Source of the DNA: Gemmatimonadaceae bacterium
GTDB lineage: Bacteria > Gemmatimonadota > Gemmatimonadetes > Gemmatimonadales > Gemmatimonadaceae
Length of the DNA: 64,000 nucleotides
Assembly (NCBI GenBank): GCA_040902005.1
Contig: JBBDYA010000045.1
Coordinates: 99,933-163,932 of the forward strand
Direction of reading: 5' to 3'
Shown here: positions 36,880 through 52,490 of the stretch, piece by piece
Layout: every line of letters begins with the position of its first letter
How positions within the stretch are numbered: position 1 is the stretch's first letter
The notes under the pieces: generated by a model
Told to the model about the DNA's origin: nothing
Database searches by the model: none
The model's input: only the letters and a program-made list of their open reading frames with translations
Program-made: the position numbers and the translations under genes

Positions 36880-38160
36880 GTGGACCGCGCGCTCCTCGTG
36901 GGCGCGCCGCTCAAACGCGCGCGTGCGCGCGCGGATCTGCGCGAGCACCTCGACGAGCTCGCGCGACTGGTGGACACCGCGGGCGCCGTCATCGTGGGCG
37001 AGCTAACGCAACAGCTCGACCGTCCGCATGCCGCGACGTATCTCGGCGCTGGCAAGATCGATGAATTGCGGCAGATGGTCATCGACACGCAGGCCACCAT
37101 CGTCGTGTTCGACGACGAACTCTCGCCCTCGCAGGCGAAGAACATCGAGGACTCCATCGGGCAGCGGGTCGTCGACCGCGCGGAGTTGATTCTGGACATC
37201 TTCGCCACGCGGGCCCGCTCGGCAGAAGCGAAGGTGCAGGTCGAGTTGGCGCAACTGGAGTACATGCTCCCGCGCCTGACGCGCATGTGGACCCACCTCG
37301 AGAAGTTTCGCGGCGGTATCGGCGTCCGGGGTCCCGGCGAAACACAGCTGGAGACGGACCGCCGGCTGATCAGCCATCGCATCAAGCTTCTGCGTGCGAA
37401 GCTGCGCGAGGTCACAAAAGGGCGCGCCGTGCAGCGGCAGGGACGCCGTGGCGAGTTCAAGGCGTCCCTTGTCGGCTACACGAACGCGGGCAAGTCGTCG
37501 CTGCTGCGCTCGCTCGCGAACGCGCAGGACATCTTCGTGGAAGACCGGCTGTTCGCGACACTGGATCCGCTGACGCGGGAAGTGAAGCTCGACGACCACG
37601 CGAAGGCACTCGTGACCGACACGGTTGGCTTCATTCGCAAGCTCCCCCACCACCTGGTCGCGTCGTTTCGTGCGACGCTGGAGGAGGCGCGTGAGGCAGA
37701 CCTGCTGCTGCACGTGATCGACGCGTCGCACGCCATGTGGGAGGAGCAGCGCGGCGTAGTGGAGGACGTGCTGAAGAGCCTGGAGCTTCACGAGCGTCCG
37801 GCACTCCTGGTCTTCAACAAGGTGGACCTGCTGGACGAGCAGGAGCTCCTGGCGTTGCAGGAGCGCATGGCATCCGACGGGCAGGAGGCGGTCTTCGTGT
37901 CCGCCGTGAGCCCGGACGGCACCCTGCCGCTTCGCCGCGCCCTTCAGGGCGCCATGCGGGTTCGGCGCCCGCTCGCGGAGATCAACCTGTCGCCCGCCGA
38001 CGGGAAGATGCTCGCCGAGATTCATCAGTACGGCGAGGTGCTTGATCAGCGCACCATCGGAGAGCGGCTCGTCCTGCGCGCACGGATCGGCGAGAAGCTC
38101 GCGGGTCGACTGCGCCGGGCTGGCGCCATCGTCGACCGAGAGAATACCGCCGGGTCATGA
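36880..38160 (+). CDS. hflX: GTPase HflX (true start possibly ATC 36847)
   Basis: LILDIFA, QVELAQLEY, RGPGETQLETDRR, GYTNAGKS, LFATLDP, DTVGF, NKVD. Confidence 0.95.
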   Translation: MDRALLVGAPLKRARARADLREHLDELARLVDTAGAVIVGELTQQLDRPHAATYLGAGKIDELRQMVIDTQATIVVFDDELSPSQAKNIEDSIGQRVVDRAELILDIFATRARSAEAKVQVELAQLEYMLPRLTRMWTHLEKFRGGIGVRGPGETQLETDRRLISHRIKLLRAKLREVTKGRAVQRQGRRGEFKASLVGYTNAGKSSLLRSLANAQDIFVEDRLFATLDPLTREVKLDDHAKALVTDTVGFIRKLPHHLVASFRATLEEAREADLLLHVIDASHAMWEEQRGVVEDVLKSLELHERPALLVFNKVDLLDEQELLALQERMASDGQEAVFVSAVSPDGTLPLRRALQGAMRVRRPLAEINLSPADGKMLAEIHQYGEVLDQRTIGERLVLRARIGEKLAGRLRRAGAIVDRENTAGS

Positions 38161-39167
38161 TCGCCGTCGTCACCGGCGGCAGTGGCTTCATCGGCCGGAA
38201 TCTGATCCGGCGCCTGCTCGCGGACGGGCATCGGGTGCGGTGTCTCGTGCGTCCATCCGGGGGCGATCCGCCAGCCGACGTGGCGCGATATCTCGTTGCG
38301 CTGGACGATCCACGCGCGCTCGCGCGATGTCCCGCATTCGAGGGGGCGGACGTCGTCTTTCATCTCGCGGGCGCCACGAGGGCTGTCCGGTTCAGGGACT
38401 TTGCCACCGCCAACGTGGGGCCCACCCGGCAGCTGCTTGGCGCGCTGGCGCATCGGGGCCTCGGGCCACGGTTTGTATTCGTGTCGTCACAGGCGGCAGC
38501 GGGTCCTGCCACCACCGCGGACCGACCCGTGGTCGAGACGGATGAACCGCGTCCCATCGAGCCCTACGGCGCGAGCAAGCTCGAAGCCGAACGCGTGGTG
38601 CAGGCGCACTCGGATCGCGTGCCGGTCACGATTCTCAGGCCGTCAGCGGTGTTCGGCCCGCACGATCGCGATTTTCTCATGCTCTTCCGCATGGCTGTTC
38701 GCGGGATGATCCTGTACCCGGGCGTCGCGACGCACTGGCTGTCCCTCGTTCACGTGGATGACGTGGTGGACGCGCTTCTCGCGGTGGCCGTCCAGGACCG
38801 TGCCGTTGGGCGCACGTACTTCATCACCGCGCCGGATGCGATTCGCTGGCGCGCGTTGGGAGAGCAGGTCGGGTTGGTGACGGGGCGCGCGGTTCGCCAT
38901 GTCGATCTGCCGGCCCCGGTGGTGTTTGCCGCCGCGACCGTTGGCGACTGGTTCGGGCGCCTGACGCGTTCGACGCCGATCGCCACCCGGAGCAAGGCCG
39001 CGCTGTCGCGAGCGCCGTACTGGGTGTGTTCCGCGGCACGCGCGGGGGAGGAGCTTGGCGTTCGTGCCTCGCGTTCACTCCCTGACGCGCTGGCGGACAC
39101 GTACCTTTGGTATCGCCAACACGGATGGTTGCGCGGCCCGCGACGAGGCAGCGCGATCCCCGCCTGA
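38157..39167 (+). CDS. Extended SDR / NAD-dependent epimerase-dehydratase, candidate ceramide reductase (CerR-like)
   Basis: TGGSGFIG, HLAG, VSS, YGASK, RPSAVFGP.D. The CerR role is inferred from context. Confidence 0.8.
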   Translation: MIAVVTGGSGFIGRNLIRRLLADGHRVRCLVRPSGGDPPADVARYLVALDDPRALARCPAFEGADVVFHLAGATRAVRFRDFATANVGPTRQLLGALAHRGLGPRFVFVSSQAAAGPATTADRPVVETDEPRPIEPYGASKLEAERVVQAHSDRVPVTILRPSAVFGPHDRDFLMLFRMAVRGMILYPGVATHWLSLVHVDDVVDALLAVAVQDRAVGRTYFITAPDAIRWRALGEQVGLVTGRAVRHVDLPAPVVFAAATVGDWFGRLTRSTPIATRSKAALSRAPYWVCSAARAGEELGVRASRSLPDALADTYLWYRQHGWLRGPRRGSAIPA

Positions 39168-39177
39168 ACGATCCACG

Positions 39178-42100
39178 ATGTCCGCTCACTTTACATCTCC
39201 GACGCCACCAGCCCTCGCGGCTTCCCTCGACGATGATCGGCTGGTCGAGAGCTGTGAGACCCTGGTGGACCTGCTTCGCCGCCGTGCCGAGCAAGGCGGG
39301 GAGCGCGTGGTGTACCGTTTTCTCCCTGGCGACAACAAGCCGGAGCAGCGGATCACGTATAAGGAGCTGGATCGACGCGCGACGGCTCTCGCGTCGGCCA
39401 TTCGCCAGCATGCGAAGCCAGGAGAGCGCGCGCTAATCCTCGTGCCGTCCGGGCTGGACTACATCGCCACGTATTTCGCGTGCCTCTACGCCGGCGTGGT
39501 CGCCGTGCCGGCGTACCCTCCCAATCCGCGGCGTCCGGATCCGCGGATTCCCGGCATCGTGGCCGACTGTGAGCCGGTCGTTGCACTGACCACCGCCGCC
39601 CTGCTGGATCGACTGGAGCATTGGCGAGGAGGGGACGAGCGCCTCGGCGCGCTGCGCTGGCTTGCAGCCGACGCGCCCGTCGATCCATCGATTGCGCCCG
39701 TCGAGCATCAGGCGGGAGCGCACGACGTCGCCATGCTGCAGTACACGTCCGGCTCGACCGCCGCGCCGAAGGGGGTGGTGCTCACGCACGCCAATCTGCT
39801 GCACAACCTTTCGTTGATTCGGGCAGCGTTCAACGTCCGGCACGGGTCCGATGACGTGGGTGTGTTCTGGTTGCCGCCGTATCACGACATGGGGCTGATC
39901 GGCGGCATCCTCCAGCCTTGCTACGTGGGCCGCGGTGCCGTGCTGATGGCGTCCGCGACGTTTCTCCAGCGGCCGCTGTCGTGGCTGGAGGCCATGTCGA
40001 AGTATCGTGCGACGACGAGCGCCGCCCCGAACTTTGCGTTCGACATGTGCGTGGAACGCATCAAGCCCGAGGACATGCGCGGACTCGACCTGTCCGCGTG
40101 GCACACGGTCTTTGACGGTGCGGAGCCAATTCGAGCGGACACGATCGAGCGGTTCTCGAAAGCGTTCGCCGACGTCGGCTTCCGAAGCGAAGCGTTCTTT
40201 CCCTGTTACGGCCTCGCGGAGGCCACGCTGTTCGTGTCGGGCGGCCCCTGGGGCCACGGCCCGTACACGCTCGATGTCTCGCGGTCGGAGCTCGAGCACA
40301 CCCGCGCGCGCCCAGCCATGGCCGGGGACCGGCTGCGCCTGGTCTCATCGGGCGCGGCGGCTACCGGCCAGATGGTGCGCATCGTGAATCCGGACACGCT
40401 GGAGCCGCTGGACGATCGGCGGGTGGGTGAGATCTGGTGCAGCGGTCGAAGCGTGGCCGGCGGGTATTGGCGCAATCCTGCCGAGTCGACGCGCACCTTC
40501 GGGGCGACCCTTCCTGGTGATGGCGGGCGCTACCTGCGCACGGGCGACCTCGGTTTTCTGGACGACGGCCAGTTATTCGTTACCGGACGCCTCAAGGATC
40601 TCATCGTCCTTGCCGGACGAAACTATTACCCACAGGACATCGAGCTGGCCGCCGAGCGCAGCCACCCCAGTCTGCGGCCCGGCCATGCGGCCGCATTTCC
40701 GCTGGACGGCCCGACTCGCGAGTTGCTCGCGGTCGCGCTCGAGGTCACGCGGCATCATCGCGAGAGCGACAACGAGGCGGTATTTGCGGCCGTCCGTCGC
40801 GCGCTTGCGGGCCGCGCTGGCATTCTACCCGATGTCATTCTGCTGATCAGGCAGAACGGCATTCCGCGGACCTCGAGCGGCAAGGTGCAGCGCCGGGCGG
40901 CTCGCGCCATGCAGATCGAGAACACGCTGGATGTGCTCGCCCGGTCCGACGAAACGCTCGACGACATTGCGTTCGCGGTGTCCGACGGCGGCGATGTGAG
41001 CGCGGCGCCGCTGGAGGCGTGGCTGCGTCGCTGGGTCGCCGACGAGCTGCAGATCGACGTCCGCAGCGTGGATCCAACCGCGTCGGTGCGGGACTACGGC
41101 CTGGATTCCGTGGCGGCCGTTCGCCTGGTCACGGAGCTGGAGCAGGTCCTTGGCCACCGCGTTGACGTCGCGCTGCTCTGGCGCGAGCCCTCGATCCGAT
41201 CATTGTCGAAGGCGCTCGAATCTCGCGGGGCCGTGCTCTCGGCGAGCGAGGAAGACGAGCGCGCCGCTCGACGGAGCGACGAGCGACTGGTGTCACCACT
41301 CGCGGCGTCCGAGTTTCCGGAATATCGCCTGCTGCAAGCCAGGTTCGAGGAGCTGGACCGGCACGGCCTGGAGAACCCGTATTTCCGGGTGCACGACGGC
41401 GTGACGGGGAGCGCCGCGCGCATCGGCGGACGGGACGTCGTGAATTTCGCGAACTACAACTATCTCGGCCTGTCGGGCGACGAACGCGTGAACGTGGCCG
41501 CGGTCGAGGCAATCCGGCGCTACGGCACCTCGGTATCCGCGAGCCGTGTCGTCTCCGGCGAACGATCGGTCCACCAGGAGCTCGAGCAGGAGCTGGCCGG
41601 TTTCATCGGCGTGGAGGATTGCGTTCTCTTCATCGGTGGCGTGACCGCGAACGTGTCGACCATCGCGCACCTGGTTGGCGCCGGAGACGTGGTGCTCTGT
41701 GACGAACTGTTGCACAACAGCGCGATGCAGGGGGCGCTGTTCTCCGGAGCGCACCGTCTGGCCTTTCCGCACAACGACGCGGCGGCGGCGGATCGTCTCC
41801 TCGGCGAAGTGAGGGCGAAGTACCGACGGGCGCTGATCGTCATCGAAGGTGTCTACAGCGCGGACGGCGACATTCCGGACCTGGCGAGCTTCGTCGCCCT
41901 GAAGCGCCGGCATGAAGCCTGGCTGATGGTGGACGAAGCGCACTCGATCGGCGTCCTCGGCGCGACCGGGCGCGGGCTCGCGGAACATGCCGGCGTGTCA
42001 ACGCGAAGCGTGGACCTGTGGATGGGGACCCTGTCGAAGTCGCTCGCCAGCGTGGGAGGGTACATCGGCGCCCGCCGGGAAATCATCCAGTACCTGAAGT

Positions 42101-42492
42101 ACACGGCTCCGGGCTTCGTCTTCAGCGTCGGCATGGCACCCGCGAGTGCGGCCGCGGCGCTCGAAGCACTGCGTATCCTGCGGCGGGAGCCGCAGCGTGT
42201 GCAGGCGCTGCAGGCCAATGCGGCGCTGTTCCTCGAGCTGGCGAAGGGACACGGGTTGAACACCGGATCGAGCGCGAACACACCGATCATTCCGGTCATC
42301 ACCGGCGACTCGCTGCAGGCGGTACGCCTCTCGCAGCAACTGCTGGAGCACGGGATCAACGTGCAGCCAATGGTGGCGCCGTCAGTGAGCGAGTCGGGCG
42401 CCCGCCTGCGCTTTTTCGTCGCTTCCACGCATTCCCCCGATGACATCCAGCGGACGGTGGAATTGACGGCGTCTCTGGTCCGGCGTTCGTAA
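39178..42492 (+). CDS. Fatty acyl-AMP ligase - acyl carrier protein - PLP alpha-oxoamine synthase (SPT-like) fusion
   Basis: FAAL: LQYTSGSTAAPKGV, WLPPYHDMGLIG, CYGLAEAT, RTGDLG, PRTSSGK. ACP: GLDS (Ser codon 41107-41109). AOS: NYLGL, EGVYS.DGD, DEAHS, GTLSKS (Lys codon 42037-42039). Confidence 0.92.
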   Translation: MSAHFTSPTPPALAASLDDDRLVESCETLVDLLRRRAEQGGERVVYRFLPGDNKPEQRITYKELDRRATALASAIRQHAKPGERALILVPSGLDYIATYFACLYAGVVAVPAYPPNPRRPDPRIPGIVADCEPVVALTTAALLDRLEHWRGGDERLGALRWLAADAPVDPSIAPVEHQAGAHDVAMLQYTSGSTAAPKGVVLTHANLLHNLSLIRAAFNVRHGSDDVGVFWLPPYHDMGLIGGILQPCYVGRGAVLMASATFLQRPLSWLEAMSKYRATTSAAPNFAFDMCVERIKPEDMRGLDLSAWHTVFDGAEPIRADTIERFSKAFADVGFRSEAFFPCYGLAEATLFVSGGPWGHGPYTLDVSRSELEHTRARPAMAGDRLRLVSSGAAATGQMVRIVNPDTLEPLDDRRVGEIWCSGRSVAGGYWRNPAESTRTFGATLPGDGGRYLRTGDLGFLDDGQLFVTGRLKDLIVLAGRNYYPQDIELAAERSHPSLRPGHAAAFPLDGPTRELLAVALEVTRHHRESDNEAVFAAVRRALAGRAGILPDVILLIRQNGIPRTSSGKVQRRAARAMQIENTLDVLARSDETLDDIAFAVSDGGDVSAAPLEAWLRRWVADELQIDVRSVDPTASVRDYGLDSVAAVRLVTELEQVLGHRVDVALLWREPSIRSLSKALESRGAVLSASEEDERAARRSDERLVSPLAASEFPEYRLLQARFEELDRHGLENPYFRVHDGVTGSAARIGGRDVVNFANYNYLGLSGDERVNVAAVEAIRRYGTSVSASRVVSGERSVHQELEQELAGFIGVEDCVLFIGGVTANVSTIAHLVGAGDVVLCDELLHNSAMQGALFSGAHRLAFPHNDAAAADRLLGEVRAKYRRALIVIEGVYSADGDIPDLASFVALKRRHEAWLMVDEAHSIGVLGATGRGLAEHAGVSTRSVDLWMGTLSKSLASVGGYIGARREIIQYLKYTAPGFVFSVGMAPASAAAALEALRILRREPQRVQALQANAALFLELAKGHGLNTGSSANTPIIPVITGDSLQAVRLSQQLLEHGINVQPMVAPSVSESGARLRFFVASTHSPDDIQRTVELTASLVRRS

Positions 42493-42507
42493 CCGCGCGG
42501 CCGGGGA

Positions 42508-43182
42508 ATGCCGTACGGCTACGTGGGAACGTGTCTCGGAACCGTGGCAGCGTCATCGGGCGCCGTCGCGGAACTCTGGTACGCGCGCGTGGGTGAGCAT
42601 GAAGCCCAGCTCGATCTGTACAGCCGCGACTATCTCTCCGAGGACGAGCAGCGGCGGCAGCGGAGGTATCGGGGACGTGGGGCTGCCGAGCGCTACGTAG
42701 TGACGCGCTCGCTCGTGCGGGGCGTATTGTCGGAGCGGCTCGGCGTGCCACCCCGCGAAGTGCCGGTCAATCGCACGGACACGGGCAAGCCGGTCATCAG
42801 CGGCGGCGTGCACTTCAACGTGAGCCACTCCGGAGACCTGATTCTGCTCGCCCTGAGCGTCGAGCGCGCGATCGGTGTCGACGTGGAGCGGCGACGCGAC
42901 ATCGCCCGCGTGGAGGCGCTGGTCCGGCGGTGGCTGTCGGAGACGGAGCGCACCGCGGTAGTACGGCTCGGCGCGATGGGCGCGTCACCCTCCGACGCCT
43001 TCCTCCGCGTCTGGAGCCTGAAGGAGGCGCGGCTGAAGGCGTTGGGGGTCGGCATCGCCGGACAGTCAGGGGCCGACGAGCTGCTCGCCGGCGTCGAAGT
43101 GAGTCCGCTGGACGACCTGCTGGCGTCGATCGCGACGGACGGTGACGATCAGGGCTATGTGGGCGCTGTAGCGTTCGCGTGA
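42508..43182 (+). CDS. Sfp-type 4'-phosphopantetheinyl transferase (start uncertain, possibly GTG 42544)
   Basis: GKP, FNVSHS, IGVDVE, WSLKEARLKALGVG. Confidence 0.9.
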   Translation: MPYGYVGTCLGTVAASSGAVAELWYARVGEHEAQLDLYSRDYLSEDEQRRQRRYRGRGAAERYVVTRSLVRGVLSERLGVPPREVPVNRTDTGKPVISGGVHFNVSHSGDLILLALSVERAIGVDVERRRDIARVEALVRRWLSETERTAVVRLGAMGASPSDAFLRVWSLKEARLKALGVGIAGQSGADELLAGVEVSPLDDLLASIATDGDDQGYVGAVAFA

Positions 43183-44000
43183 GCGCGGCGGGTGAGGCGC
43201 ATGCCGATCACGGCGACCGCCCCCCCCGCGAGCGCTCCAGCGATCACGTCTACCGCGTAGTGAAAGCCGCCATAGATCGCGCCGGCGGCCAGGGCCGTCG
43301 TGAGTCCCGCCAGCCACCAGCCGCGCGCCCCGAAGTAGCGCACCGCGAGAATGGATTGCGTCACCGCGACCGCCACGTGCGACGAGGGAAAGGCCGTGCC
43401 CTTGGAGGAGCGCGCTTCGAGCAGCCAGAGCGTGAACGCCCGCAGCGGTCCTGGCGCCATCCCGTGCGATTCGGACCACACGTACCGCGGCCCGGCGACG
43501 GGGAGGAGCAGGTAGCAGGCAAAACACGTCACGAATGCGAGCATCAGCACGAACACGGCGTCGTGGAACTCCGCGATGCGACGCCGGAGCCACAGCAGCA
43601 CGGGGACTGAAAAAACGATGGCGTAGTAACTCAGGTAGGCGCCATGCAGCATTTCGCTGACCGGCCTCCAGGGCATCTGGATCGCCCACGCCCGCGCCGG
43701 CTGGCCGCCGAACAGCGCCTGCTCCCATGCCATGACGCGCGCGTCGAAGAACCCGTCGTGCCCTACGGCCCGGATGAGCATGGGCATCTCGGAATACAGC
43801 AGCAGCAGCGCGAGCATCGGCGACCACTGTCGAAGCCACGTGGGAGCCCGTTGCCACCACGTGGCCGCGACGATCGCGGCCAGCAGCGCGAAGTGAACGA
43901 GTATGCCGACGCCAGAGACGCGATCGCGTCCGGCCAGGAGGAGGGTGCCGGTGACGGCGAGATAGCACACCAGGAGCGCGCCAGCCCATATTGCCCGCAT
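43155..44000 (-). CDS. PAP2-superfamily membrane enzyme, AUR1/inositol-phosphorylceramide-synthase-like
   Basis: About 7-8 TM segments; YLSYY, PVAGPRY, AFPSSH, HYAVDVIAG. Confidence 0.8.
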   Translation of the reverse strand: MRAIWAGALLVCYLAVTGTLLLAGRDRVSGVGILVHFALLAAIVAATWWQRAPTWLRQWSPMLALLLLYSEMPMLIRAVGHDGFFDARVMAWEQALFGGQPARAWAIQMPWRPVSEMLHGAYLSYYAIVFSVPVLLWLRRRIAEFHDAVFVLMLAFVTCFACYLLLPVAGPRYVWSESHGMAPGPLRAFTLWLLEARSSKGTAFPSSHVAVAVTQSILAVRYFGARGWWLAGLTTALAAGAIYGGFHYAVDVIAGALAGGAVAVIGMRLTRRAHANATAPT

Positions 44001-45147
44001 GTCGCTTGAGATCGTCCCCGTGGAGCGTGGCCGTGACCGCTCCGCTTTCATAGATGTGGCGTGGCACATACCGGAAGCCACGCGGCATCCCCGGTGGGTG
44101 CCGCCGCTGCGAATGATGGTGCGTGACCTGCTCGACACCAAGGGGAATCCCTTCTACCGAAACGCCGATCGGGCGCTGTTCATCGCGCGCCGCGACGGCC
44201 GCCCGGTGGGGCGCATCGCCGCCATCGAGAACCGCGCCCACAACCGAGCCCACTCCGACCGGACCGGGTTCTTCGGCTTCTTCGAGTGCGTCGATGATGC
44301 TGCGGCCGCGAGCGCCCTGTTCGACGCCGCGGAGCGATGGTTGGCGGCACGGGGGCTGACGGCGATGCGGGGCCCCATGAGTCCGTCGACGAACCACGAG
44401 TGCGGCCTGCTGGTCGAGGGTGTCGACGAGCACCCGATGTTTCTCACACCGTGGAATCCTGCGTATTACGAAAGGCTCATCCTGGGGGCCGGTTTCACCA
44501 CCATCCGTGATTTACTCGGCTACTGGCTACCGTATGGCGAGCCGGGCTTCCAGCTTGCGCCGAGAATCGAAGCAATGGCCTTACGGGCAAAGGCCAGGGC
44601 GAACCTCGCATTTCGCGACATGGAGGCCGCCCGATTCTGGCAGGATGTGGAGCTGGTCTGGGAGATCTACAATTCCGCATGGGAGCGGAACTGGGGGTTT
44701 GTGCCCATGACGCGCGACGAATTCCTGCACATGGCCAGGTCGCTCAAGCCACTTCTGGTACCCCGGTTTGCCTTTCTCGCGGAAGTGGACGGCGTTCCCG
44801 CCGGGTTCATGCTCTCGGCTCCCGATTTCAATCGCGCCATCAGACGCATCGGGAACGGGCGGCTGTTGCCGTTCGGGTTCGTTCGGCTGTTGCGCGAACG
44901 ATCGCGCGCGCGCACGGGACGCGTTATCGCGTTCGGCATCCGGGAACAGTTCCGCAACCAGAGTGTGCTGCCGGTATTCATGCATGAGGCGGCGAGACGC
45001 GCCATCGCCTACGGGTCTCCCGGCTCGGAGGCGTCCTGGATCCTGGAGGACAACGTGGGCATGCGGCAGGGCATCGAGGCGTTCGGCGGTCGCGTGTATC
45101 GTCGCTGGCGGATCTTCGAGCGCCAGATCGCGCCCCGCCCCGCGTGA
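43999..45147 (+). CDS. Tandem-GNAT N-acyltransferase, bacterial ceramide synthase (bCerS)-like
   Basis: WVPPL, NPFY, VGRIAA, GFFGFFE, GP, ECGLLVEG, NPAYY, YNSAWERNWGFVP, SWILEDN; family recognised from memory. Confidence 0.78.
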   Translation: MSLEIVPVERGRDRSAFIDVAWHIPEATRHPRWVPPLRMMVRDLLDTKGNPFYRNADRALFIARRDGRPVGRIAAIENRAHNRAHSDRTGFFGFFECVDDAAAASALFDAAERWLAARGLTAMRGPMSPSTNHECGLLVEGVDEHPMFLTPWNPAYYERLILGAGFTTIRDLLGYWLPYGEPGFQLAPRIEAMALRAKARANLAFRDMEAARFWQDVELVWEIYNSAWERNWGFVPMTRDEFLHMARSLKPLLVPRFAFLAEVDGVPAGFMLSAPDFNRAIRRIGNGRLLPFGFVRLLRERSRARTGRVIAFGIREQFRNQSVLPVFMHEAARRAIAYGSPGSEASWILEDNVGMRQGIEAFGGRVYRRWRIFERQIAPRPA

Positions 45148-45148
45148 C

Positions 45149-46270
45149 GTGAGCGCGCGACGCATCGCGATCGTCAGCGACTGGTTCGCGCCCCGACGCG
45201 GCGGAATCGAAGCGCAGCTGGCGCAGCTCGCGCAGCGCCTGGGCGCGCGCGGACATGCGGTGGACGTGTTCACCTCCACGCCTGGCGCGCGCGAGGGCGA
45301 GGGGTACCGGGTTCGGCCGGCCGATGTCTGGACGCTGCCGGCGCTGCATCTCGCGGCGTCGCCGCGGCTCGTGCAGCGCCTGCGCCGCCAGCTGGACCAG
45401 GGGTACGACGTCGTGCACGCGCACGTGAGCGTGGTGTCGCCACTGGGATACGCTGGGGCGATTGCTGCGCGGTCGCTCGGACTCCCAACGGTCCTGACCT
45501 TTCACTCGGTGCTGCACGCCAAGGCCCACGTGTTGCGGGCCGCGAGCGCCGTGCTCGATCTCCCGGCGAGCGCCATCGTGTGGACGGCTGTCAGCCGGCT
45601 CGTCGCGTTACAGGCGAAAAAGGCGATGGGCGTGCCCGTGCTCGAGTTGCCGAACGGCATCGAGCTGGCCGAGTGGCGCACCCTCCCCGGCGCGAGGACG
45701 CTGGAGACGCCGGTCACGATCGTGTCCGCGATGCGACTTCACCGAAAGAAGAGACCGAGGCAGCTGGTGGCGGCGTTCGCCCGCGCGGCCAAGCATGCGC
45801 GGCGACCGGCTCGTCTGCTCATCGTCGGCGATGGACCGGAACGCTCCGCGCTCGACCACGACATTCGCGCGCTCGGACTGAACGATGGTCCATCCCGCGT
45901 TGAGCTCCACGGCTGGGTGAACCCGAACGGATTGCGGGCCATGTACGGGGGAGCCCACGCGTTCGCGCTGGCGTCCCGGAACGAATCGTTCGGGATCGCG
46001 GCCCTCGAGGCGCGGGCCGCGGGCCTGCCAGTCATCGCGATGCGCCAGTCCGGGAGCAGCGAGTTTCTCGAGGACGGAACGGACGCGCTGCTGTGCGATG
46101 ACGACGCGGACCTGTCACGCGCCCTGACCGAGGTGATTCGGGATGGCGCGCTCCGCGGGTGCCTGGGGCAACGGATTCCCGGCCTCGAGCGGTACGACTG
46201 GAGCGCCGTCCTGAACGGCCACGAGGCCGCCTACCAGCTGGCTACGACGCGCGCAACCGCCGTGGCATGA
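45149..46270 (+). CDS. GT4 family glycosyltransferase (PimA/PIG-A-like N-terminus)
   Basis: VSDWFAPRRGGIE, VVHAH, TFHS, PNGI, GDGP, ESFGIAALEA (EX7E). Confidence 0.88.
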   Translation: MSARRIAIVSDWFAPRRGGIEAQLAQLAQRLGARGHAVDVFTSTPGAREGEGYRVRPADVWTLPALHLAASPRLVQRLRRQLDQGYDVVHAHVSVVSPLGYAGAIAARSLGLPTVLTFHSVLHAKAHVLRAASAVLDLPASAIVWTAVSRLVALQAKKAMGVPVLELPNGIELAEWRTLPGARTLETPVTIVSAMRLHRKKRPRQLVAAFARAAKHARRPARLLIVGDGPERSALDHDIRALGLNDGPSRVELHGWVNPNGLRAMYGGAHAFALASRNESFGIAALEARAAGLPVIAMRQSGSSEFLEDGTDALLCDDDADLSRALTEVIRDGALRGCLGQRIPGLERYDWSAVLNGHEAAYQLATTRATAVA

Positions 46271-47225
46271 GTTGGCGAAGCGTGAGCAGCGCGTAGCCGG
46301 TGCCGATGGAGGGCAGCAGGAAGCAGAGATGCTGGACGACCGCCAGCCCCAGCGCGGTTTCCGCAGGTGTGCCCACGAAGCGGTACACCGCGAACACGGT
46401 CGCCTCGTAGATCCCGAGGTTGGCGGGCGCGATCGGGACCAGCGTCGACAGGGCGAGCGCGGCGACGATCAGGACGGCGGTGGAGAGCGAGGGTTCAACT
46501 CCGAACGCTGCCTGCACGGCCAGCACGGCTGCCACCTCTGCGGCCTTCTTGAGGAGCGTCAGGACGGCGACCTGCCAAAGGCGGCGCGGCTCGCGCAGCG
46601 CATCCAGGTGCTGTCCCCACGCCGCGAGCGCGCCGAGGAGGCGGCGAGTGGTCGTGGGCATCGCGAGCAATCGCTCCCGGATCGCACTCCAATGGTGTGC
46701 GAGCGGAACGAGAAGGGCGAGCGACGCGACCAGCACCAGCAGCAGGAGCACGAAACCCTTGCGCAGCCAGATCGGGATGGGCGCGATGGCGACCGCGAGC
46801 GAAAGCACCGACAGCTTCGCGAATGCCACGAGCAGCTGATCCATCGCAAGCACCGAGAGCGCCGCGCCGCGCGAGAGCCCGGCCCGTGCAATCAGCAGCG
46901 CTACCGCGGACGCCTCCCCCGCGAGAAAAGGCACCGAGTTCAACACGCTCGCGGTCACGGCGACTACCTCGAACATCCGCGCGTACAGTATGCGCGCGGT
47001 TCCTGGCACCAGGATCCGCCATTCGAGCGCCCAGAGTGGCAGGATGGCGAAGTTGACCGCCAGGGCAAGGACGAGCCACATGGGCTTCACTCGTTGCAGC
47101 TCGGCTACGGCGCGATCCAGCGGCAGCGTTCGCAGCACCTGGACGAGTGCGAGTGTCAACGCGAGCCACAGAATCGGGAGCAGCCACGCCGTGACGGTCG
47201 ACCGGCGGACGGCGGCGATCGTCAT
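46242..47225 (-). CDS. Lysylphosphatidylglycerol-synthase TM-domain (MprF/UPF0102-unrelated flippase-like) membrane protein
   Basis: Multi-TM; NSVP..AGE and PIAPANLGIYE motifs typical of LPG-synthase TM proteins; ATGA coupling with the deacetylase. Confidence 0.78.
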   Translation of the reverse strand: MTIAAVRRSTVTAWLLPILWLALTLALVQVLRTLPLDRAVAELQRVKPMWLVLALAVNFAILPLWALEWRILVPGTARILYARMFEVVAVTASVLNSVPFLAGEASAVALLIARAGLSRGAALSVLAMDQLLVAFAKLSVLSLAVAIAPIPIWLRKGFVLLLLVLVASLALLVPLAHHWSAIRERLLAMPTTTRRLLGALAAWGQHLDALREPRRLWQVAVLTLLKKAAEVAAVLAVQAAFGVEPSLSTAVLIVAALALSTLVPIAPANLGIYEATVFAVYRFVGTPAETALGLAVVQHLCFLLPSIGTGYALLTLRQLMPRRLRAS

Positions 47226-47962
47226 GCGGCCGCCAGTTGGGCACCGAGGCGGTCCATGCGAACAAACGTCGCGCCGCGGCGCTGAAAGAGATCGATGACT
47301 TCGCGCACGGCGCGCAGTGCCGGCTCGCCCGTGCGGAATCGACAGTCGAGACGCAGTCGCTCCCGCGTCAGGTCCACGAACTCCCATGGGTGCACGAACA
47401 GCACGACCGGCGAAGCGAGCGACAGCAGCCAGCGGTCGCGCAGCCAGCGCGGAAGGCGCAGCACAGAGGACGTCATCGATGCGGGGATGCGCGTCAGCGG
47501 GGTGCGCGCGGGCGGGCCGTAGTACTCCGCCTTGTACCTGGCCTGTGACGAGTCGACGAGATATCCCTCCTCCACCAGCAGTGGCAGACAGGCGGTCGGC
47601 AAGCGCAGGTTGGGCGCGCGGAAGGACGTCACCGGCGCTCCGAACGCCCTCAACGCCGCCGTTGCCGCGCGCAGGTCCAGTTGTGCGTCCGCGGGAGGCA
47701 TCCGGTCGAAGCGCTGATGCGTGTGTCCATGACATCCCAGCTCGTGCCCGCGAGCGATCACGTCACGGATACGCGCGGGAAAGCGCTCCGCCACCTGACC
47801 GGTGCAGAAACAAGTCGCGACGACGCCCGCCTCATCGATCGCATCCAGCACCCTCGGCAAACCCTCCTCGATCCCGCGATATTGCGTCGCGAGATACGGC
47901 GGACAGTCGGGCTCCACGTCCACGCCGAGCGAAACGGCCAGCTTTCCGGGGAATGTGTTCAT
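47222..47962 (-). CDS. Polysaccharide deacetylase (NodB/CE4 fold)
   Basis: VDVE, ATCF, HELGCHGHTH, FRAP, VDSS, HPWEF. Confidence 0.88.
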   Translation of the reverse strand: MNTFPGKLAVSLGVDVEPDCPPYLATQYRGIEEGLPRVLDAIDEAGVVATCFCTGQVAERFPARIRDVIARGHELGCHGHTHQRFDRMPPADAQLDLRAATAALRAFGAPVTSFRAPNLRLPTACLPLLVEEGYLVDSSQARYKAEYYGPPARTPLTRIPASMTSSVLRLPRWLRDRWLLSLASPVVLFVHPWEFVDLTRERLRLDCRFRTGEPALRAVREVIDLFQRRGATFVRMDRLGAQLAAA

Positions 47963-49587
47963 TGGCGCGTGCACTGAATCAAATTAGGCCGTTGGTGGCC
48001 GGGATGCTGATCGCCTTCGCGGATGAGGCGCGCGCGCAGCCCGCCGCGACGGTGCCTGCGTCGAGCGCGATCTATCACTGGCTGGAATCCGTGACTGCCT
48101 GGTACCCGTCGCGTGATGTTCCCCTTGGCGTGCGACCGCTGTCGCGGACTCAGGTGGTGCGCATCGTGGCGCGGTTGCGCCGGGAGGTAGAGGCCGACAA
48201 CGCGGGGAATCCTGGCCGGCGCGCCTTGGCGCTGCGGCAGCTTGCGGCGATCGATTCCGCGCTGGACGCCGAACCGGATGGCGCAGCCATCACGGGCCGC
48301 CTCTCGCTCGCCATGGAATTCTTCGGATCGAACGCGCGGCTCGACACCATCAAGTCCAACGGACTGGGGAGCATCGACGCCGTGTCGCACCCGTTCGGAG
48401 ACCTGCGGCAGGGCTGGCCGAGTGAGCGTGGCGCCATTGTCAGCGTCGCTCCCACAGCCGCGCTCGGCCTGGGCCATCGGCTGGCGATCGTCGTTCAGCC
48501 GCGCGCATCGGTCTTTTCGCCGCCCGCTTCCAATGCCAGCGCTGAACTCGTGACGCAACGCGCCTATGTGCGGGGCGTCGTGCGGAACGTCGCGCTCAGG
48601 GCCGGTGCCGACGAGGTACTCTGGGGACAATCGTCGCGCGGAGCCCTCTTCATCGCCGGCAACGCCATGCCGCTCATGGCCATCACGGTCGGAACGGACG
48701 CGCCAGTGGTCCTGCCATGGCTGTTTCGCCTGGCGGGCCCGGTCAGCATCACAGGGATGGTCGCCGACCTCGGACGCGCCCAGGATCCGCCGCACACCAA
48801 GCTGGCCGGTTGGCACGTTGCCATGCAGCCCTGGGCGCGATTCGAGCTCGGTGTGTCCGTGCTTGCGCAACAGGGTGGTCGGGGTGGGCCCGAGGCCAGC
48901 CTGGTCGATCGCGTGCTCGATCTGTTCCCACTGATCGACGCGCTCGACCCGCGACGCGGGGATTACCAGTTCTCCAACAAGCTGGCTGGCGGCAATCTCC
49001 GGCTTCGCTTTCCCGAGCTCTCCGGCCTGGACCTCCACTACGAACTGCTCATGGACGATTTCGACCTCCGTCGCTTCGAGAGCACGGTCGTGGATGATTT
49101 CAGTCACCTCGTGGGACTTCGGCTGCCGCTGCTCGTAGGGAGTGGACAGCTCGTGCTCCATGGCGAAGTGCACAACATGGGGCTGCGCCTCTACGAACAT
49201 GCCCAGTTCCGCTCGGGCGTCACGTTCCGTGACCGGCTGATCGGGAGCCCCCTCGGACCCAACGCGAAAGGGGCCTATCTCTCCGTGAGGTGGCAGCCCT
49301 CTCCGCGAACGGAGTGGGAGGTGACGCTCGCGGACGAGTCGCGTGATCCGAGCCTGTATACAGCCACCGCGTCCGGTGCGTTCGACGAGGGATTTGTGTT
49401 CATCCGGCAGACCGACGATCCGCGCCATCGCCGCCGGCGCGTCACGTCCGCGCTGTCCCGCAACGTGCCTGGCGGAGCCGTGCGAATGGCCGGCGGATAC
49501 AACCACGCCTGGCGGAGCGGTGAGCCTCCACGGGGAGCGTGGCTGGGGCAGGTGTCCTTCACGACGCGGGGACCGCCGAGCTTCTGA
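47953..49587 (+). CDS. Capsule assembly Wzi-family outer-membrane protein (start ATG 47953 or 48004)
   Basis: Signal peptide ending ARA-Q; G....WG....GAL...GNA.P motif; beta-strand pattern; C-terminal Phe. Confidence 0.7.
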   Translation: MCSLARALNQIRPLVAGMLIAFADEARAQPAATVPASSAIYHWLESVTAWYPSRDVPLGVRPLSRTQVVRIVARLRREVEADNAGNPGRRALALRQLAAIDSALDAEPDGAAITGRLSLAMEFFGSNARLDTIKSNGLGSIDAVSHPFGDLRQGWPSERGAIVSVAPTAALGLGHRLAIVVQPRASVFSPPASNASAELVTQRAYVRGVVRNVALRAGADEVLWGQSSRGALFIAGNAMPLMAITVGTDAPVVLPWLFRLAGPVSITGMVADLGRAQDPPHTKLAGWHVAMQPWARFELGVSVLAQQGGRGGPEASLVDRVLDLFPLIDALDPRRGDYQFSNKLAGGNLRLRFPELSGLDLHYELLMDDFDLRRFESTVVDDFSHLVGLRLPLLVGSGQLVLHGEVHNMGLRLYEHAQFRSGVTFRDRLIGSPLGPNAKGAYLSVRWQPSPRTEWEVTLADESRDPSLYTATASGAFDEGFVFIRQTDDPRHRRRRVTSALSRNVPGGAVRMAGGYNHAWRSGEPPRGAWLGQVSFTTRGPPSF

Positions 49588-49590
49588 CAA

Positions 49591-49664
49591 TGGTCCCGGT
49601 GGGACTCGAACCCACGACCCGACGATTATGAGTCGCCTGCTCTAACCGGCTGAGCTACGGGACC
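49591..49664 (-). tRNA. tRNA-Ile2 (anticodon CAT, lysidine type); CCA not encoded
   Basis: Reverse complement GGTCCCGTAGCTCAGCCGGTTAGAGCAGGCGACTCATAATCGTCGGGTCGTGGGTTCGAGTCCCACCGGGACCA folds as a cloverleaf; the AGGCGACTCATAATCG arm matches the ileX-type tRNA. Confidence 0.88.
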
Positions 49665-49676
49665 GCGACCTTCAAT

Positions 49677-50720
49677 CTATGCTTTGCGACCGCGCGTCGC
49701 GCCGCGCTTTCCAGACGACGCAGGAACGGCCGGCGTTGCGAAATGGTCGTACGCGTCGAGCACCTCGGCTGGCGAGACGGTCGCTGCCCCCAGCTTTCCG
49801 ACCTCGACCCCCGCCGCGTAGTTGGCGATGACCGCCGCCTCCTCGGCGGTGCCGCCGGCGCCGAGCACCGTCGCCAGGTAGGCGGTGACCGTATCACCGG
49901 CACCGACGACGTCGTAGACCTCCCGAGCCACCGTGGAGACCGATTTCAACCCGCCCCCGCGTGAGGCGAGCACCATTCCGCGTTCCCCGAGCGTCAGGAG
50001 CAGGTGCGCCACGCCGAGACGCTCCATCGCGGCGGGAATCGCTTCGGGGTGCTCGAGATCGACGGCCGCACCGAGCGCCGATTCCAGTTCCCGGCGGTTC
50101 GGCTTGAACACCGTGGCGCCCCGGTAGGTGAAGAAATGGCGGTACTTCGGGTCGACGATGACGGGAATCTTCCGGGCGCGCGCCACCTCGATGGCGTTCG
50201 TGATCACTGAGGGAACGAGCACACCCTTGTTGTAATCCTCGAGAATCAGGGCTTGCGCGTCGGTCAGTGCACTGGCGATCGCCTCGCTGATTCGTGCGGC
50301 GTCCGAGGCCCCGAGATCGGCATCCTCTTCATCGTCGATGCGCACGAGCTGCTGGGACCGCGCCAGCACGCGTGTCTTCCGGGTCGTTGGCCGCGGGACA
50401 GTGAGAAGCCCCTCCGCGGACACGCCGCTCGCCAGCAGCATCTCCCGGATCTGCTGCCCGGAGGCATCGCTTCCGACCGCGCAGACCATCCGGCATCGGG
50501 CGCCAGCGGCGACAACGTTCTGCGCGACGTTCGCGGCGCCGCCCAGCGCGAAGCGTCGCTCCCGTACCCGCACGACTGGCACCGGGGCCTCGGGCGAAAT
50601 GCGCTCGACATCGCCCACGAGATATTCGTCGAGCATGGCGTCGCCCACCGCCACGACGCAAACATCCAGGGCCAGGCCCAACAGCTCCTCCAGGCGAGCT
50701 CGACTGATAGATAAGGGCAT
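49677..50720 (-). CDS. D-glycero-beta-D-manno-heptose-7-phosphate kinase (RfaE domain I / HldA, PfkB family)
   Basis: GDAMLDEY, RISPEAPVPV, GGAANVA, DYNKG, KPNRRE, DVVGAGDTV. Confidence 0.9.
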   Translation of the reverse strand: MPLSISRARLEELLGLALDVCVVAVGDAMLDEYLVGDVERISPEAPVPVVRVRERRFALGGAANVAQNVVAAGARCRMVCAVGSDASGQQIREMLLASGVSAEGLLTVPRPTTRKTRVLARSQQLVRIDDEEDADLGASDAARISEAIASALTDAQALILEDYNKGVLVPSVITNAIEVARARKIPVIVDPKYRHFFTYRGATVFKPNRRELESALGAAVDLEHPEAIPAAMERLGVAHLLLTLGERGMVLASRGGGLKSVSTVAREVYDVVGAGDTVTAYLATVLGAGGTAEEAAVIANYAAGVEVGKLGAATVSPAEVLDAYDHFATPAVPASSGKRGATRGRKA

Positions 50721-50820
50721 GGGGCAAGATAAGCCCCCGGCACACGCCTTGCCTCCACCGGACTCGGCAAGGTGCGCACGCAAATGCGCGTATCTCGTCA
50801 CGTCACCTCGCTCAACTCCC

Positions 50821-51636
50821 TTGTCAGAACTGATTCTCCGCCTGAACGCGCGGGCCAAAAGCGCCGTGCAGACGCTTCAGGAATATTTCGAACTGGCCTG
50901 GAATGCGGTCCGATTCATCTTTGCGCGCCCGTTCTACGCACAGGACGTGGTTCAGCAGATGGACGAGATCGGTGTGAAATCCCTGGGCATCGTCCTCCTG
51001 ACCGGGCTGTTCACGGGGATGGTGCTGGCTCTCCAATCCAGCATTCAGCTGCAGACGTTCGGCGCCACGATGTACATCGGCCGGCTTGTGGCTGGATCGA
51101 TGATCCGGGAACTGGGGCCAGTACTCGCTGGACTGATGGTCGCCGGCCGCGTGGGGTCCGGGATCGCGGCGCAGTTGGGGTCGATGAAGGTGACGGAGCA
51201 GATCGATGCCCTCAACACGCTGGGGACCGACCCGATCAAGAAGCTGGTGACGCCCCGCCTGATCGCGGCGCTCATCATGCTCCCCGTGCTCACGATCATC
51301 AACGACATGGTCGGGATATTCGGTGGCAATCTCATTGCGACGCTGATGCTCGGGCTGCCGACATCGCTGTACTGGCGCACCGTATGGGAACAGATCATCT
51401 CTGGCGGATTCGTCTTCGGCTTCATCCCGAACGATTTCGTGCAGGGGCTGCTGAAGCCCCTCATGTTCGGGGCGATCATTGCCATCACCGCGTGCTTTTT
51501 CGGTTTGCGCACGACCGGGGGCACCGAGGGCGTTGGCCAGTCCACGACCAAGGCGGTCGTGACGTCGAGCATTCTGATTCTGGTGAGCGACTACTTCCTC
51601 ACGCAGATCCTCCTCTCCGTTCTGCACGCGCCATGA
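50821..51636 (+). CDS. mlaE: MlaE-family ABC lipid transporter permease (start uncertain)
   Basis: RELGPVLAGLMVAGRVGSGIAAQLGSMKVTEQIDAL, GGTEGVG..TT.AVV. Confidence 0.9.
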   Translation: MSELILRLNARAKSAVQTLQEYFELAWNAVRFIFARPFYAQDVVQQMDEIGVKSLGIVLLTGLFTGMVLALQSSIQLQTFGATMYIGRLVAGSMIRELGPVLAGLMVAGRVGSGIAAQLGSMKVTEQIDALNTLGTDPIKKLVTPRLIAALIMLPVLTIINDMVGIFGGNLIATLMLGLPTSLYWRTVWEQIISGGFVFGFIPNDFVQGLLKPLMFGAIIAITACFFGLRTTGGTEGVGQSTTKAVVTSSILILVSDYFLTQILLSVLHAP

Positions 51637-52490
51637 CGCAGGAACTTCGCCGCAAGGGCGAGCGCAAATCAGGCCATGTGCGCGAGGCCATCCGCCAGGA
51701 GCTGGCGACGGACAGCGCGGCGATGCCAGCCGAGGACGCTGTCGAAGCGGGTGCGCGGCCCCCCGTGATCGAAATGCAGGACGTCAGCCTCGCGTTCGAT
51801 GTGCCCATCCTCGAGGACATCTCGTTCAAGGCACACGAGGGTGAGACCATCGTCATCGTCGGTGAATCCGGCACGGGGAAATCCACCGCGCTCAAGCTGA
51901 TGCTGCGCCTGTTGGTGCCGCAGAAGGGACGCGTGCTCGTGGATGGCGAGGACATCACGGATCTGTCATTCGAGGAAGCGCTCGTGGTGCGACAGAAAAT
52001 GGGGATGGTGTTTCAGGGCGCCGCGCTGTTCGACTCGCTCACGGTCTTCGAGAACATCGCCTATCCGCTTCGCGAACACACGCGCATGTCGGACGACGAG
52101 ATCGAGCAGCGGGTTCGCGAGAAGCTGGCGTTCGTGGATCTCGAGGCGGACGAGGTGATGGACAAGCTCCCGTCCGAGCTGTCGGGCGGCATGCGCAAAC
52201 GGGTCGGGATCGCCCGTGGGATGGCCAACGATCCCGAGGTGATGCTGTACGACGAACCCACGTCGGGACTGGATCCGCTCACGACGGGCACGATTACGCG
52301 GCTCATCCTGAAGCTCCAGCGGGAGCTCAAGGTCACCAGCATCGTCGTGTCCCACGACATCCGTTCGGCGTTCCGGATGGCCACCAAGATCGCGCTGCTG
52401 CACGACCATCGCATCTCCTTTTTCGGCACGCCGGAGGAAATGTCGGCCGCCGAGGATCCGTACATCCATGACTTTCTCGGTGGACTCTGA
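51633..52490 (+). CDS. mlaF: MlaF-family ABC ATPase
   Basis: GESGTGKS, FQGAALFDS, LSGGMRKRVGIAR, YDEPTSGLDP, SHD. Confidence 0.9.
   Translation: MTQELRRKGERKSGHVREAIRQELATDSAAMPAEDAVEAGARPPVIEMQDVSLAFDVPILEDISFKAHEGETIVIVGESGTGKSTALKLMLRLLVPQKGRVLVDGEDITDLSFEEALVVRQKMGMVFQGAALFDSLTVFENIAYPLREHTRMSDDEIEQRVREKLAFVDLEADEVMDKLPSELSGGMRKRVGIARGMANDPEVMLYDEPTSGLDPLTTGTITRLILKLQRELKVTSIVVSHDIRSAFRMATKIALLHDHRISFFGTPEEMSAAEDPYIHDFLGGL

Follow-up and report, generated by a model that had tools for sequence, protein, structure and literature searches.

The window analysed here is a 64,000-nucleotide (nt) stretch of a Gemmatimonadaceae genome (GCA_040902005.1, contig JBBDYA010000045.1, positions 99,933–163,932). 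It contains an open reading frame of 1104 amino acids (aa) at positions 39178..42492 (+ strand) that joins, in a single frame, a fatty acyl-AMP ligase (FAAL, PF00501), an acyl carrier protein (ACP, PF00550) and an alpha-oxoamine synthase (AOS, PF00155). The domains are at aa positions ~20–595, ~605–690 and ~713–1104, and 39178 is the likely start. This FAAL-ACP-AOS fusion lies among genes resembling those for the ceramide synthase bCerS and the reductase CerR, and it is proposed from its sequence to be a candidate self-loading serine palmitoyltransferase (SPT). It probably displaced the canonical SPT and, with serine as substrate, feeds bCerS and CerR. The predicted ceramide core is a known pathway; the predicted entry enzyme, an AOS of the SgaB branch fused to a starter-type FAAL-ACP, is unreported. 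Literature titles and abstract openings describe neither a FAAL-ACP-AOS fusion nor Gemmatimonadaceae as sphingolipid producers.

The AOS domain and its fusion partners

Residues His846, Asp919, His922, Lys954 (the pyridoxal phosphate (PLP) lysine) and Arg1078 of the AOS domain align with the active-site set of the S. multivorum SPT and are invariant in 46/46 aligned homologues (fusions). The Ser of the SR motif, which matches that of the S. multivorum SPT, is also invariant among the aligned homologues. By this residue set the domain is a catalytically intact AOS, and its predicted model gives a TM score of 0.91 to 3a2b (by target length).

The domain is not a canonical bacterial SPT. Three trees were made, two quick ones (one with 62 of 93 rows, the other with 42 rows under a mixture model) and a careful one (26 rows, LG+G4), and all three agree. 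In the 26-row tree the domain groups at 100/100 with the SgaB/RkpG/WcbT branch, whose members are linked to polyketide synthases (PKS); support was 100 in the two earlier trees. This branch is sister to the canonical SPT clade (94/97) and apart from BioF and Kbl. In the approximately unbiased (AU) test, with groups named after the earlier trees had been seen, a clade of the domain with canonical SPT (E. coli Spt, CFB-type) is rejected (p 2e-51), as is a clade with BioF (p 5e-69). The initial annotation had counted on a domain distinct from BioF and Kbl, and the 26-row tree and AU test bear this out; among the groups that it named (SPT, BioF, KBL and RkpG-WcbT) the domain falls with the last. 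The CFB SPT model NF047600 gives 320 bits for the fused AOS versus 460–590 bits for nine stand-alone AOS genes beside related GNATs; these stand-alone SPT-like genes of relatives are also below the cut-off of the model.

The closest annotated relatives of the domain among plasmid records have 47%–55% identity and are part of, or adjacent to, type I PKS genes. They are found in Sinorhizobium, Paraburkholderia, Planktothrix (a PKS-AOS) and Pseudomonas (L150). The Sinorhizobium and Paraburkholderia loci (L104 and L105) are presumably RkpG-like and WcbT-like; these labels come from gene order, and not from the records. In L150, whose AOS is 52% identical to the window AOS, the locus tags of the PKS, AOS and short-chain dehydrogenase/reductase (SDR) genes are spaced 5 and 25 apart, as are those of sgaA, sgaB and sgaC in strain MYb115. 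The sgaB gene passage, read by eye, has NYLG and YGTSVSASR, as do L150 and the window AOS.

The sgaB product of Pseudomonas fluorescens MYb115 (PfSgaB) is reported to bind serine, with a strong preference over alanine and glycine, and to make 3-ketodihydrosphingosine (3-KDS) from three acyl-CoAs, with products of C16–C20 acyl-CoA seen by liquid chromatography-mass spectrometry (PMC12134224). The MYb115 SgaABC system for PKS-derived sphingolipids (PMC12134224) thus shares with the window an AOS of the same branch with the YGTSVSASR motif, and in both the natural substrate is probably an acyl chain tethered to an ACP. It differs in that the chain in the window would be supplied by a FAAL. There is no SgaA-like PKS in the source genome, where only short ketosynthase and enoyl reductase-type matches (≤106 bits) were found. 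The window also has a CerR-type extended SDR, whereas SgaC is a short KDSR-type SDR, and it has a bCerS-type GNAT.

The loci which we take to be RkpA/RkpG/RkpH (Sinorhizobium) and WcbR/WcbT/WcbP (Burkholderiales) have AOS sequences 47%–52% identical to the window AOS, in the same 100/100 clade. Unlike the window, they have a stand-alone AOS beside PKS and capsule genes; the window AOS is fused and accompanied by bCerS and CerR types.

The FAAL domain is of the PKS/NRPS-starter type, and its closest solved relative is an olefin synthase FAAL. The ACP carries Ser644 within a GLDS motif. The reference enzymes used here are those of the E. coli BL21(DE3) locus, the counterpart of five Caulobacter genes, of which Spt has been assayed and yghO and the SDR gene were assigned by homology (PMC9386255). 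BLAST against this locus shows 35% identity of the FAAL to AasR and 34% of the AOS to Spt, and no match of E. coli AcpR to the fusion ACP. The FAAL falls outside the AasR subfamily: it reaches 372 bits on PRK09192, where the cut-off is 600 and E. coli AasR scores 870. The idea that the fusion is a joining of AasR, AcpR and Spt orthologues was rejected on these scores, the missing AcpR match and the position of the AOS outside the canonical SPT clade. The initial annotation had seen counterparts of the whole Caulobacter route in this locus; for the GNAT (YghO/bCerS) this stands, for the SDR (CerR-like) it is likely, and the fusion is a different protein from a joined set of the Caulobacter enzymes.

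In the Caulobacter crescentus/E. coli BL21(DE3) ceramide pathway (AasR, AcpR, Spt, bCerS (YghO) and CerR; PMC9386255, PMC11324152, PMC11087976), as would be the case here, free fatty acid is loaded on a dedicated ACP for a PLP condensing enzyme, and a bCerS-type tandem GNAT and a CerR-type extended SDR are present. The window differs in that a single polypeptide combines loader, carrier and condensing enzyme, an Sfp gene travels along, the AOS and FAAL belong to other groups, and the head-group genes are different. Neither cpg nor lptF2/G2-type genes were found, and E. coli lptF2/G2 gave no match in the genome.

An Sfp-type phosphopantetheinyl transferase gene (42508..43182, +; PF01648 and PF22624) follows the fusion. 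It adjoins 12/19 fused-type loci versus 0/10 canonical loci (0/58 canonical loci in a first set), and its product would prime the fused ACP. It is the only PF01648 match in the 93%-complete genome and no separate acpS was found there, so that it may serve housekeeping or fatty-acid synthesis as well.

Probable replacement of the canonical SPT in Gemmatimonadaceae

The tandem GNAT open reading frame (43999..45147, +; weak PF00583) shows 34% identity to E. coli YghO over 383 columns (375/380 residues, E-value = 6e-58) and is the sole match in the genome. A 61-sequence GNAT profile matches YghO with an hhalign probability of 100 (E-value = 2e-76), and the predicted model (pLDDT 92) has the tandem-GNAT fold. 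The placement of this sequence with bCerS in the initial annotation is upheld by these results. It also passes the published bCerS/CerR filter (E ≤ 1e-30, coverage ≥ 50%; PMC11334938), with the reference YghO itself assigned by homology. A PDB sequence search with the GNAT gave no matches, and no NCBIfam model matches either the window GNAT or YghO. The sequence data support a predicted function as a YghO/bCerS-family ceramide synthase (N-acyltransferase). Divergent paralogues (29%–37%) of the GNAT occur at G013:C11, G038:C1, G121:C430 and elsewhere; three were retrieved and have no AOS beside them.

The extended SDR (38157..39167, +; PF01370, 132 bits) has 30% identity to the E. coli CerR orthologue (ECD_02852-type) and is the best of three matches to CerR in the genome (117 bits versus 89 and 74). 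Its motifs are GGSGFIG, SSQA and YGASK. In a 45-row tree it groups with SDRs of Gemmatimonadaceae canonical-SPT loci (support 95), and together with E. coli CerR it lies within one 38-row group (support 94), in a tree with thin outgroups and a long CerR branch. The Rossmann motif is at the very start of the sequence, which has neither a hydrophobic leader nor a membrane segment; Caulobacter CerR is reported to be periplasmic (PMC11087976). The SDR is a candidate CerR-like reductase of 3-oxo-ceramide or of a 3-keto long-chain base. Its earlier assignment to CerR is thus favored by the best genome match and the grouping, and not by the published filter (see below).

The association of these genes was followed in 201 Gemmatimonadaceae genomes of at least 85% completeness. 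The fused-type AOS is present in 18 genomes (7 genera) and a canonical SPT in 26 (11 genera); no genome has both. The GNAT is found in 47 of the 201, i.e. in 18/18 genomes with the fused type, 25/26 with the canonical type and 4 with neither. The remaining 153 genomes are without fused AOS, canonical SPT and GNAT. Genome G017 enters as one row in the family tallies only, and the pairs L001/G006, L009/G211 and L014/G233 each seem to stand for a single contig.

The two AOS types also occupy the same position. The fusion is directly upstream of the GNAT in G104, G142, G233 and G236, and the same slot is filled by a canonical SPT in G011, G027, G088, G125, G152 and G198. The source genome has no AOS between the GNAT and the GT4 glycosyltransferase gene, where close relatives have a canonical SPT. 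In a 61-row GNAT tree, fused and canonical types interleave in one Gemmatimonadota clade, with at least four changes of type, two of them forced by starred branches.

Within the genus of the source organism, the GNAT and the fused-type AOS are present in 10/10 genomes. The AOS is unbroken in nine of these (in one it is cut by the contig end) and in frameshifted pieces in G008. The order hflX-SDR-fusion-Sfp-PAP2-GNAT is kept in 8/9 genus loci (G005 is without PAP2), and hflX is adjacent in 9/9.

Canonical SPT-bCerS-CerR loci are also found in metagenome-assembled genomes (MAGs) of other Gemmatimonadota, Ignavibacteriota, Acidobacteriota and Bacteroidota. These have the same GNAT, SDR and PAP2 genes, and often the sugar-related genes described below; they differ from the window in having a stand-alone CFB-type SPT.

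Several related loci show further variants. Among 401 genomes across the phylum, this AOS type is found in six. In one of these, G239 (L155:1530-12553), consecutive genes encode a reducing type I PKS, an SgaB-type AOS, a short SDR and a bCerS-like GNAT, with efflux, GT21-like and ABC genes after them; this may represent a PKS/Sga route joined to a ceramide synthase. In G064 (L130:4606-9546) an open reading frame of 1647 aa has the order FAAL-acyl-CoA dehydrogenase-ACP-AOS, an insert of the same size is present in L136 (G210), and the inserted domain could introduce a double bond into the carrier-bound chain. In G064 the gene after the GNAT encodes an MBOAT protein. The fused-type loci L131:11046-14448 (G104) and L133:6192-7442 (G142) have a GT2/GT21-like glycosyltransferase instead of the genes around GT4, and G104 has a FabF-like ketosynthase between GNAT and SDR. 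An independent fusion of FAAL-ACP to an SPT of the canonical clade (L006:1996-5154) lies directly after a bCerS-like GNAT in another Gemmatimonadaceae MAG.

Organization of the locus and the candidate head-group genes

The initial annotation described nine genes between hflX (36880..38160, +) and a tRNA-Ile2. The open reading frames, their span and their families are confirmed by the Pfam and NCBIfam scans, apart from one label (see below). The tRNA (49591..49664, −; CAT anticodon; ARAGORN and Rfam), a flank outside the pathway, is labelled Met by ARAGORN from the anticodon; its sequence features would fit Ile2. An Rfam scan found two tRNAs only.

By open reading frame listing and inspection of starts, the nine genes form five blocks on alternating strands and not one operon: hflX-SDR-fusion-Sfp (+), PAP2 (−), GNAT-GT4 (+), CE4-flippase (−) and Wzi (+). 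The hflX stop overlaps the SDR start by 4 nt, and the gaps between neighboring genes of the locus are −29 to +41 nt. The start codons of PAP2 and GNAT share one CATG palindrome (43998-44001) with zero intergenic space, as in 8/8 genus loci checked; thus the promoter of each gene must lie inside the other. A scan for promoters and terminators gave 0 and 5 sites, no more than in shuffled sequence.

The source genome (3.64 Mb, 93% complete) has one copy of each locus gene, and the closest GNAT relatives are Gemmatimonadaceae. The GC content of the locus is that of its flanks and no long repeat bounds it, hence it is not a recent island; an island at the tRNA was ruled out on these grounds and on the same flanks across the genus. 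The clustering is not due to chance: when 80 loci were retrieved with the GNAT, the DNA stretches examined contained an AOS in 60 and a related SDR in 48. A sphingolipid in place of lipopolysaccharide was also ruled out, as lpxC, rfaC/rfaF-like genes and rfaE are all present. Beyond the tRNA (49677-53477) the translations show an rfaE-like kinase (−) and then an MlaE/MlaF/MlaD-like ABC set, with a possible role in lipid transport.

The remaining genes are potentially involved in head-group addition. The PAP2_3-family membrane enzyme (43155..44000, −; PF14378, 62 bits) has FPSSH and HYAVD motifs. It shows a weak match to the phosphatidylinositol-dihydroceramide synthase model NF052609 (E-value = 0.0024, far below the cut-off), and presumably resembles AUR1-type head-group transferases. 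It is a candidate phospho-head-group transferase or lipid phosphatase. The GT4 glycosyltransferase (45149..46270, +; PF00534/PF13439) is a candidate N-acetylhexosamine (HexNAc) transferase, and the CE4 deacetylase (47222..47962, −; PF01522; motifs DVEPD and HGHTH) a candidate HexNAc-lipid de-N-acetylase. The flippase-like membrane protein (46242..47225, −; PF03706/TIGR00374) is of the GpgF/AglD2/YbhN type, with 327 aa and ~6 hydrophobic segments. It had been labelled MprF-type. This label was dropped, together with an aminoacylation role: only the flippase-like membrane domain (PF03706) is present and no aminoacylating synthase domain was matched in the Pfam and NCBIfam scans.

GT4, deacetylase and AglD2/YbhN-type flippase together are the combination found in GpgSDF (Pseudomonas aeruginosa) and HexSDF (C. 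difficile). By score the GT4 does not qualify as an orthologue of GpgS, being below the cut-off of every NCBIfam model (42 bits versus 480 on the GpgS-type NF053787). The window trio differs further in its PF01522-type deacetylase, in being split over two strands and in being confined to genomes with the ceramide core.

It is possible, and suggested here tentatively by analogy, that the trio adds an aminosugar (glucosamine) to ceramide. The acceptor could be ceramide or a glycerolipid. A comparably plausible and equally provisional alternative accepts the proposed core and has GT4, CE4 and flippase making glucosaminyl-phosphatidylglycerol (PG) or aminohexosyl-diacylglycerol, with PAP2 a plain lipid phosphatase. 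GpgSDF makes glucosaminyl-PG, and the characterized trios GpgSDF and HexSDF are reported to act on PG and diradylglycerol (PMC12713373). The glycerolipid alternative is also favored by G003 and G005, in which the trio (and Wzi) is absent and rfaE lies directly beside the GNAT, and by the presence of CE4 in only 22 of the 47 GNAT-positive genomes. The distribution of the genes speaks for ceramide. CE4 orthologues are found in 22 genomes, GT4 orthologues in 20 (a possible undercount, with no more than 9 candidates scored per genome) and PAP2 orthologues in 32 of the 201, and all of these genomes are bCerS-positive (22/22, 20/20 and 32/32). The three genes accompany either type of AOS. No CE4, GT4 or PAP2 orthologue was found in the 154 GNAT-negative genomes. 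The GT4 start is 1 nt after the GNAT here, and GT4 follows the canonical SPT in relatives.

The Wzi-like outer-membrane protein (48004..49587, +; PF14052; start uncertain, 47953-48004) shows a looser link. Of 18 genomes with orthologues 14 are bCerS-positive, and several matches are far from the core; it is probably not part of the pathway. Thus, of the decorated ceramide initially suggested, the confinement of the other head-group genes to bCerS-positive genomes is in agreement and Wzi is not. The description as a self-contained cassette goes too far: the genes are in five strand blocks of which the first is continuous with hflX, the sugar module is absent from 2/9 genus loci, and Wzi also occurs without the core (4/18 genomes).

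Alternative readings and the proposed pathway

Several points weigh against a serine-using fusion that replaces the canonical SPT. On NCBIfam SPT models the AOS fails all three cut-offs (320/640, 300/500 and 201/670); of all NCBIfam models it scores highest on BioF, with 343 bits, still below the cut-off of 426. Authentic PfSgaB and the Caulobacter enzymes are not in the trees, where L150, L104 and L105 stand in for the named SgaB/RkpG/WcbT enzymes. Sequence is a poor guide to the substrate choice of AOS enzymes; no KDS was made by a Nostoc enzyme with 39% identity to SPT (PMC8895605). Two positions in the active-site region differ from the SgaB-like protein, with Ala895 in place of Met (45/46 homologues) and Val822 in place of His (42/46). 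The SDR, at an E-value of 1.25e-29 against one reference, narrowly misses the CerR filter of 1e-30. Kin genomes are not independent, and the co-occurrence counts overstate the association; hypergeometric values for these counts were given no weight. Four of the 47 GNAT-positive genomes are without either AOS type. Two of these have only a divergent (30%–32%) GNAT. The other two, G091 and G124 (87%–89% complete, fragmented), have GNAT, SDR and PAP2 and no SPT of either kind; their best scores on the CFB SPT model, 350–360 bits, are in the BioF/Kbl range. A missing contig or another entry enzyme may account for the G091 (L151:7741-10807) and G124 (L152:5046-10677) loci.

The last such point comes from outside the family. 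A FAAL is next to this AOS in 23 of 80 metagenome loci, and a bCerS-like gene is present in 4 of these 23, within the DNA stretches examined; of the four, two are Gemmatimonadaceae-like. PKS-linked metagenome loci have a bCerS-like gene in 0/16. The neighbors of 13 FAAL-AOS loci that were scanned are mostly housekeeping or unknown genes. Thus the tie of the AOS fusion to bCerS is documented within Gemmatimonadaceae, and not across this architecture as a whole. The AOS domain has matches at ≥73% in at least 100 clusters (90% identity), of which the named ones are Gemmatimonadota. Among the best 150 clusters at 50% identity, 66 are FAAL and AOS proteins of <1250 aa, 44 nearer to the SgaB type and 22 nearer to canonical SPT.

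Other arrangements of this kind were seen. L193:1003-6977, one of the four bCerS-bearing loci, has a CerR-like SDR, FAAL and ACP-AOS as separate open reading frames and a convergent bCerS-like GNAT, which may represent a half-fused state. P0101 and P0102, of the same branch, have two AOS domains in tandem, one behind an ACP-ketosynthase, and are possibly single-chain pseudo-dimers. In the Planktothrix plasmid locus (L106:88-17769) the PKS terminates in an AOS of the same branch with 55% identity to the window AOS, and a FAAL gene and GT39 genes are also present.

The fusion could use alanine, glycine or cysteate in place of serine, leading to a 1-deoxy-ceramide or a sulfonolipid-like lipid, with the trio acting on another acceptor. 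The position of the AOS outside the canonical SPT clade and the Ala895 and Val822 differences are in keeping with such a change, bacterial 1-deoxy-ceramides have been reported from the Black Sea, and a cysteate-using AOS is among the PDB matches (28eh, 158 bits). This is unlikely, as the one enzyme of the branch that has been assayed uses serine almost exclusively and the SR-motif Ser is invariant. Moreover, CE4 is retained when the fusion and canonical SPT are exchanged (12 genomes with the fused type and 10 with the canonical type have it), as expected if the serine 1-hydroxyl is kept.

Rkp and Wcb loci provide lipid anchors for polysaccharides. A product of this type, or a free amino-ketone or amino-alcohol secondary metabolite, with the bCerS link merely inherited synteny, would be consistent with the origin of both FAAL and AOS domains in secondary-metabolite branches, with the Wzi gene within the locus and with the housekeeping neighbors, without bCerS nearby, of most fusions outside Gemmatimonadaceae. 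It is quite improbable in view of the replacement pattern: there is zero overlap with canonical SPT among the 43 genomes with GNAT and AOS, the fusion directly occupies the SPT slot, and at least two switches on the GNAT tree are forced. If the fusion is set aside, bCerS and CerR in these genomes would be left with no source of long-chain base.

A BioF- or Kbl-type AOS fused to a pimelate-loading FAAL-ACP for biotin synthesis, as the best NCBIfam score and the name 8-amino-7-oxononanoate synthase given by JGI to many homologues might suggest, is very improbable and was rejected, given the AU test, the bioF cut-off, the lack of bioB or bioD matches in the genome (where the only other AOS is a Kbl beside tdh), and the true BioFs of family members, which pass this cut-off and group with E. 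coli BioF.

Gene content, family placement and the replacement pattern are observed here, and all of the chemistry is deduced from them. For the self-loading SPT, the following steps are proposed from the families of the proteins. Sfp would prime Ser644 of the fused ACP. The FAAL would adenylate a free long-chain fatty acid and load it on the ACP, bypassing the CoA pool. The AOS would then condense the tethered acyl chain with L-serine to form 3-ketosphinganine; this step is suggested by the clade, the intact catalytic residues and the gene replacement. The YghO/bCerS-type GNAT would N-acylate 3-ketosphinganine and the CerR-type SDR would reduce the ketone, giving dihydroceramide, with these two steps in either order. 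GT4 may add HexNAc, CE4 may remove the acetyl group and the PF03706 protein may flip the aminosugar lipid, as in GpgSDF/HexSDF. PAP2 may add or remove a phospho head group. These head-group reactions together are the weakest step, and ceramide as the acceptor is conceivable rather than expected.

A broader reading is possible and is put forward with reserve. FAAL-ACP-AOS proteins may be one-chain self-loading sphingoid-base synthases of widespread architecture, a third entry beside canonical SPT and PKS/SgaB. In Gemmatimonadaceae the SgaB type may have displaced canonical SPT more than once, feeding bCerS and CerR; variants with acyl-CoA dehydrogenase may desaturate the base on the carrier; and the product in the source organism may be an undescribed cationic glucosaminyl (phospho)ceramide.

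The locus joins two routes that have been treated separately in the literature, the canonical Spt-bCerS-CerR and the PKS/SgaB routes. The presence of an SgaB-branch enzyme where ceramide loci otherwise have their SPT is an independent argument, from genomes, for the formation of sphingoid bases by this branch in the absence of a PKS, and bears on the products of RkpG/WcbT-like enzymes. A single-chain long-chain-base synthase could also be a useful biocatalyst. A Black Sea study extended SPT-like genes to 40 phyla and notes matches within longer proteins; Gemmatimonadota is not named in its main text, and may be in its supplementary list of 38–40 phyla (PMC11334938). As the gene is named 8-amino-7-oxononanoate synthase and fails the SPT model cut-offs, SPT-based surveys may undercount producers. 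The present findings add an abundant soil family to the candidate sphingolipid producers.

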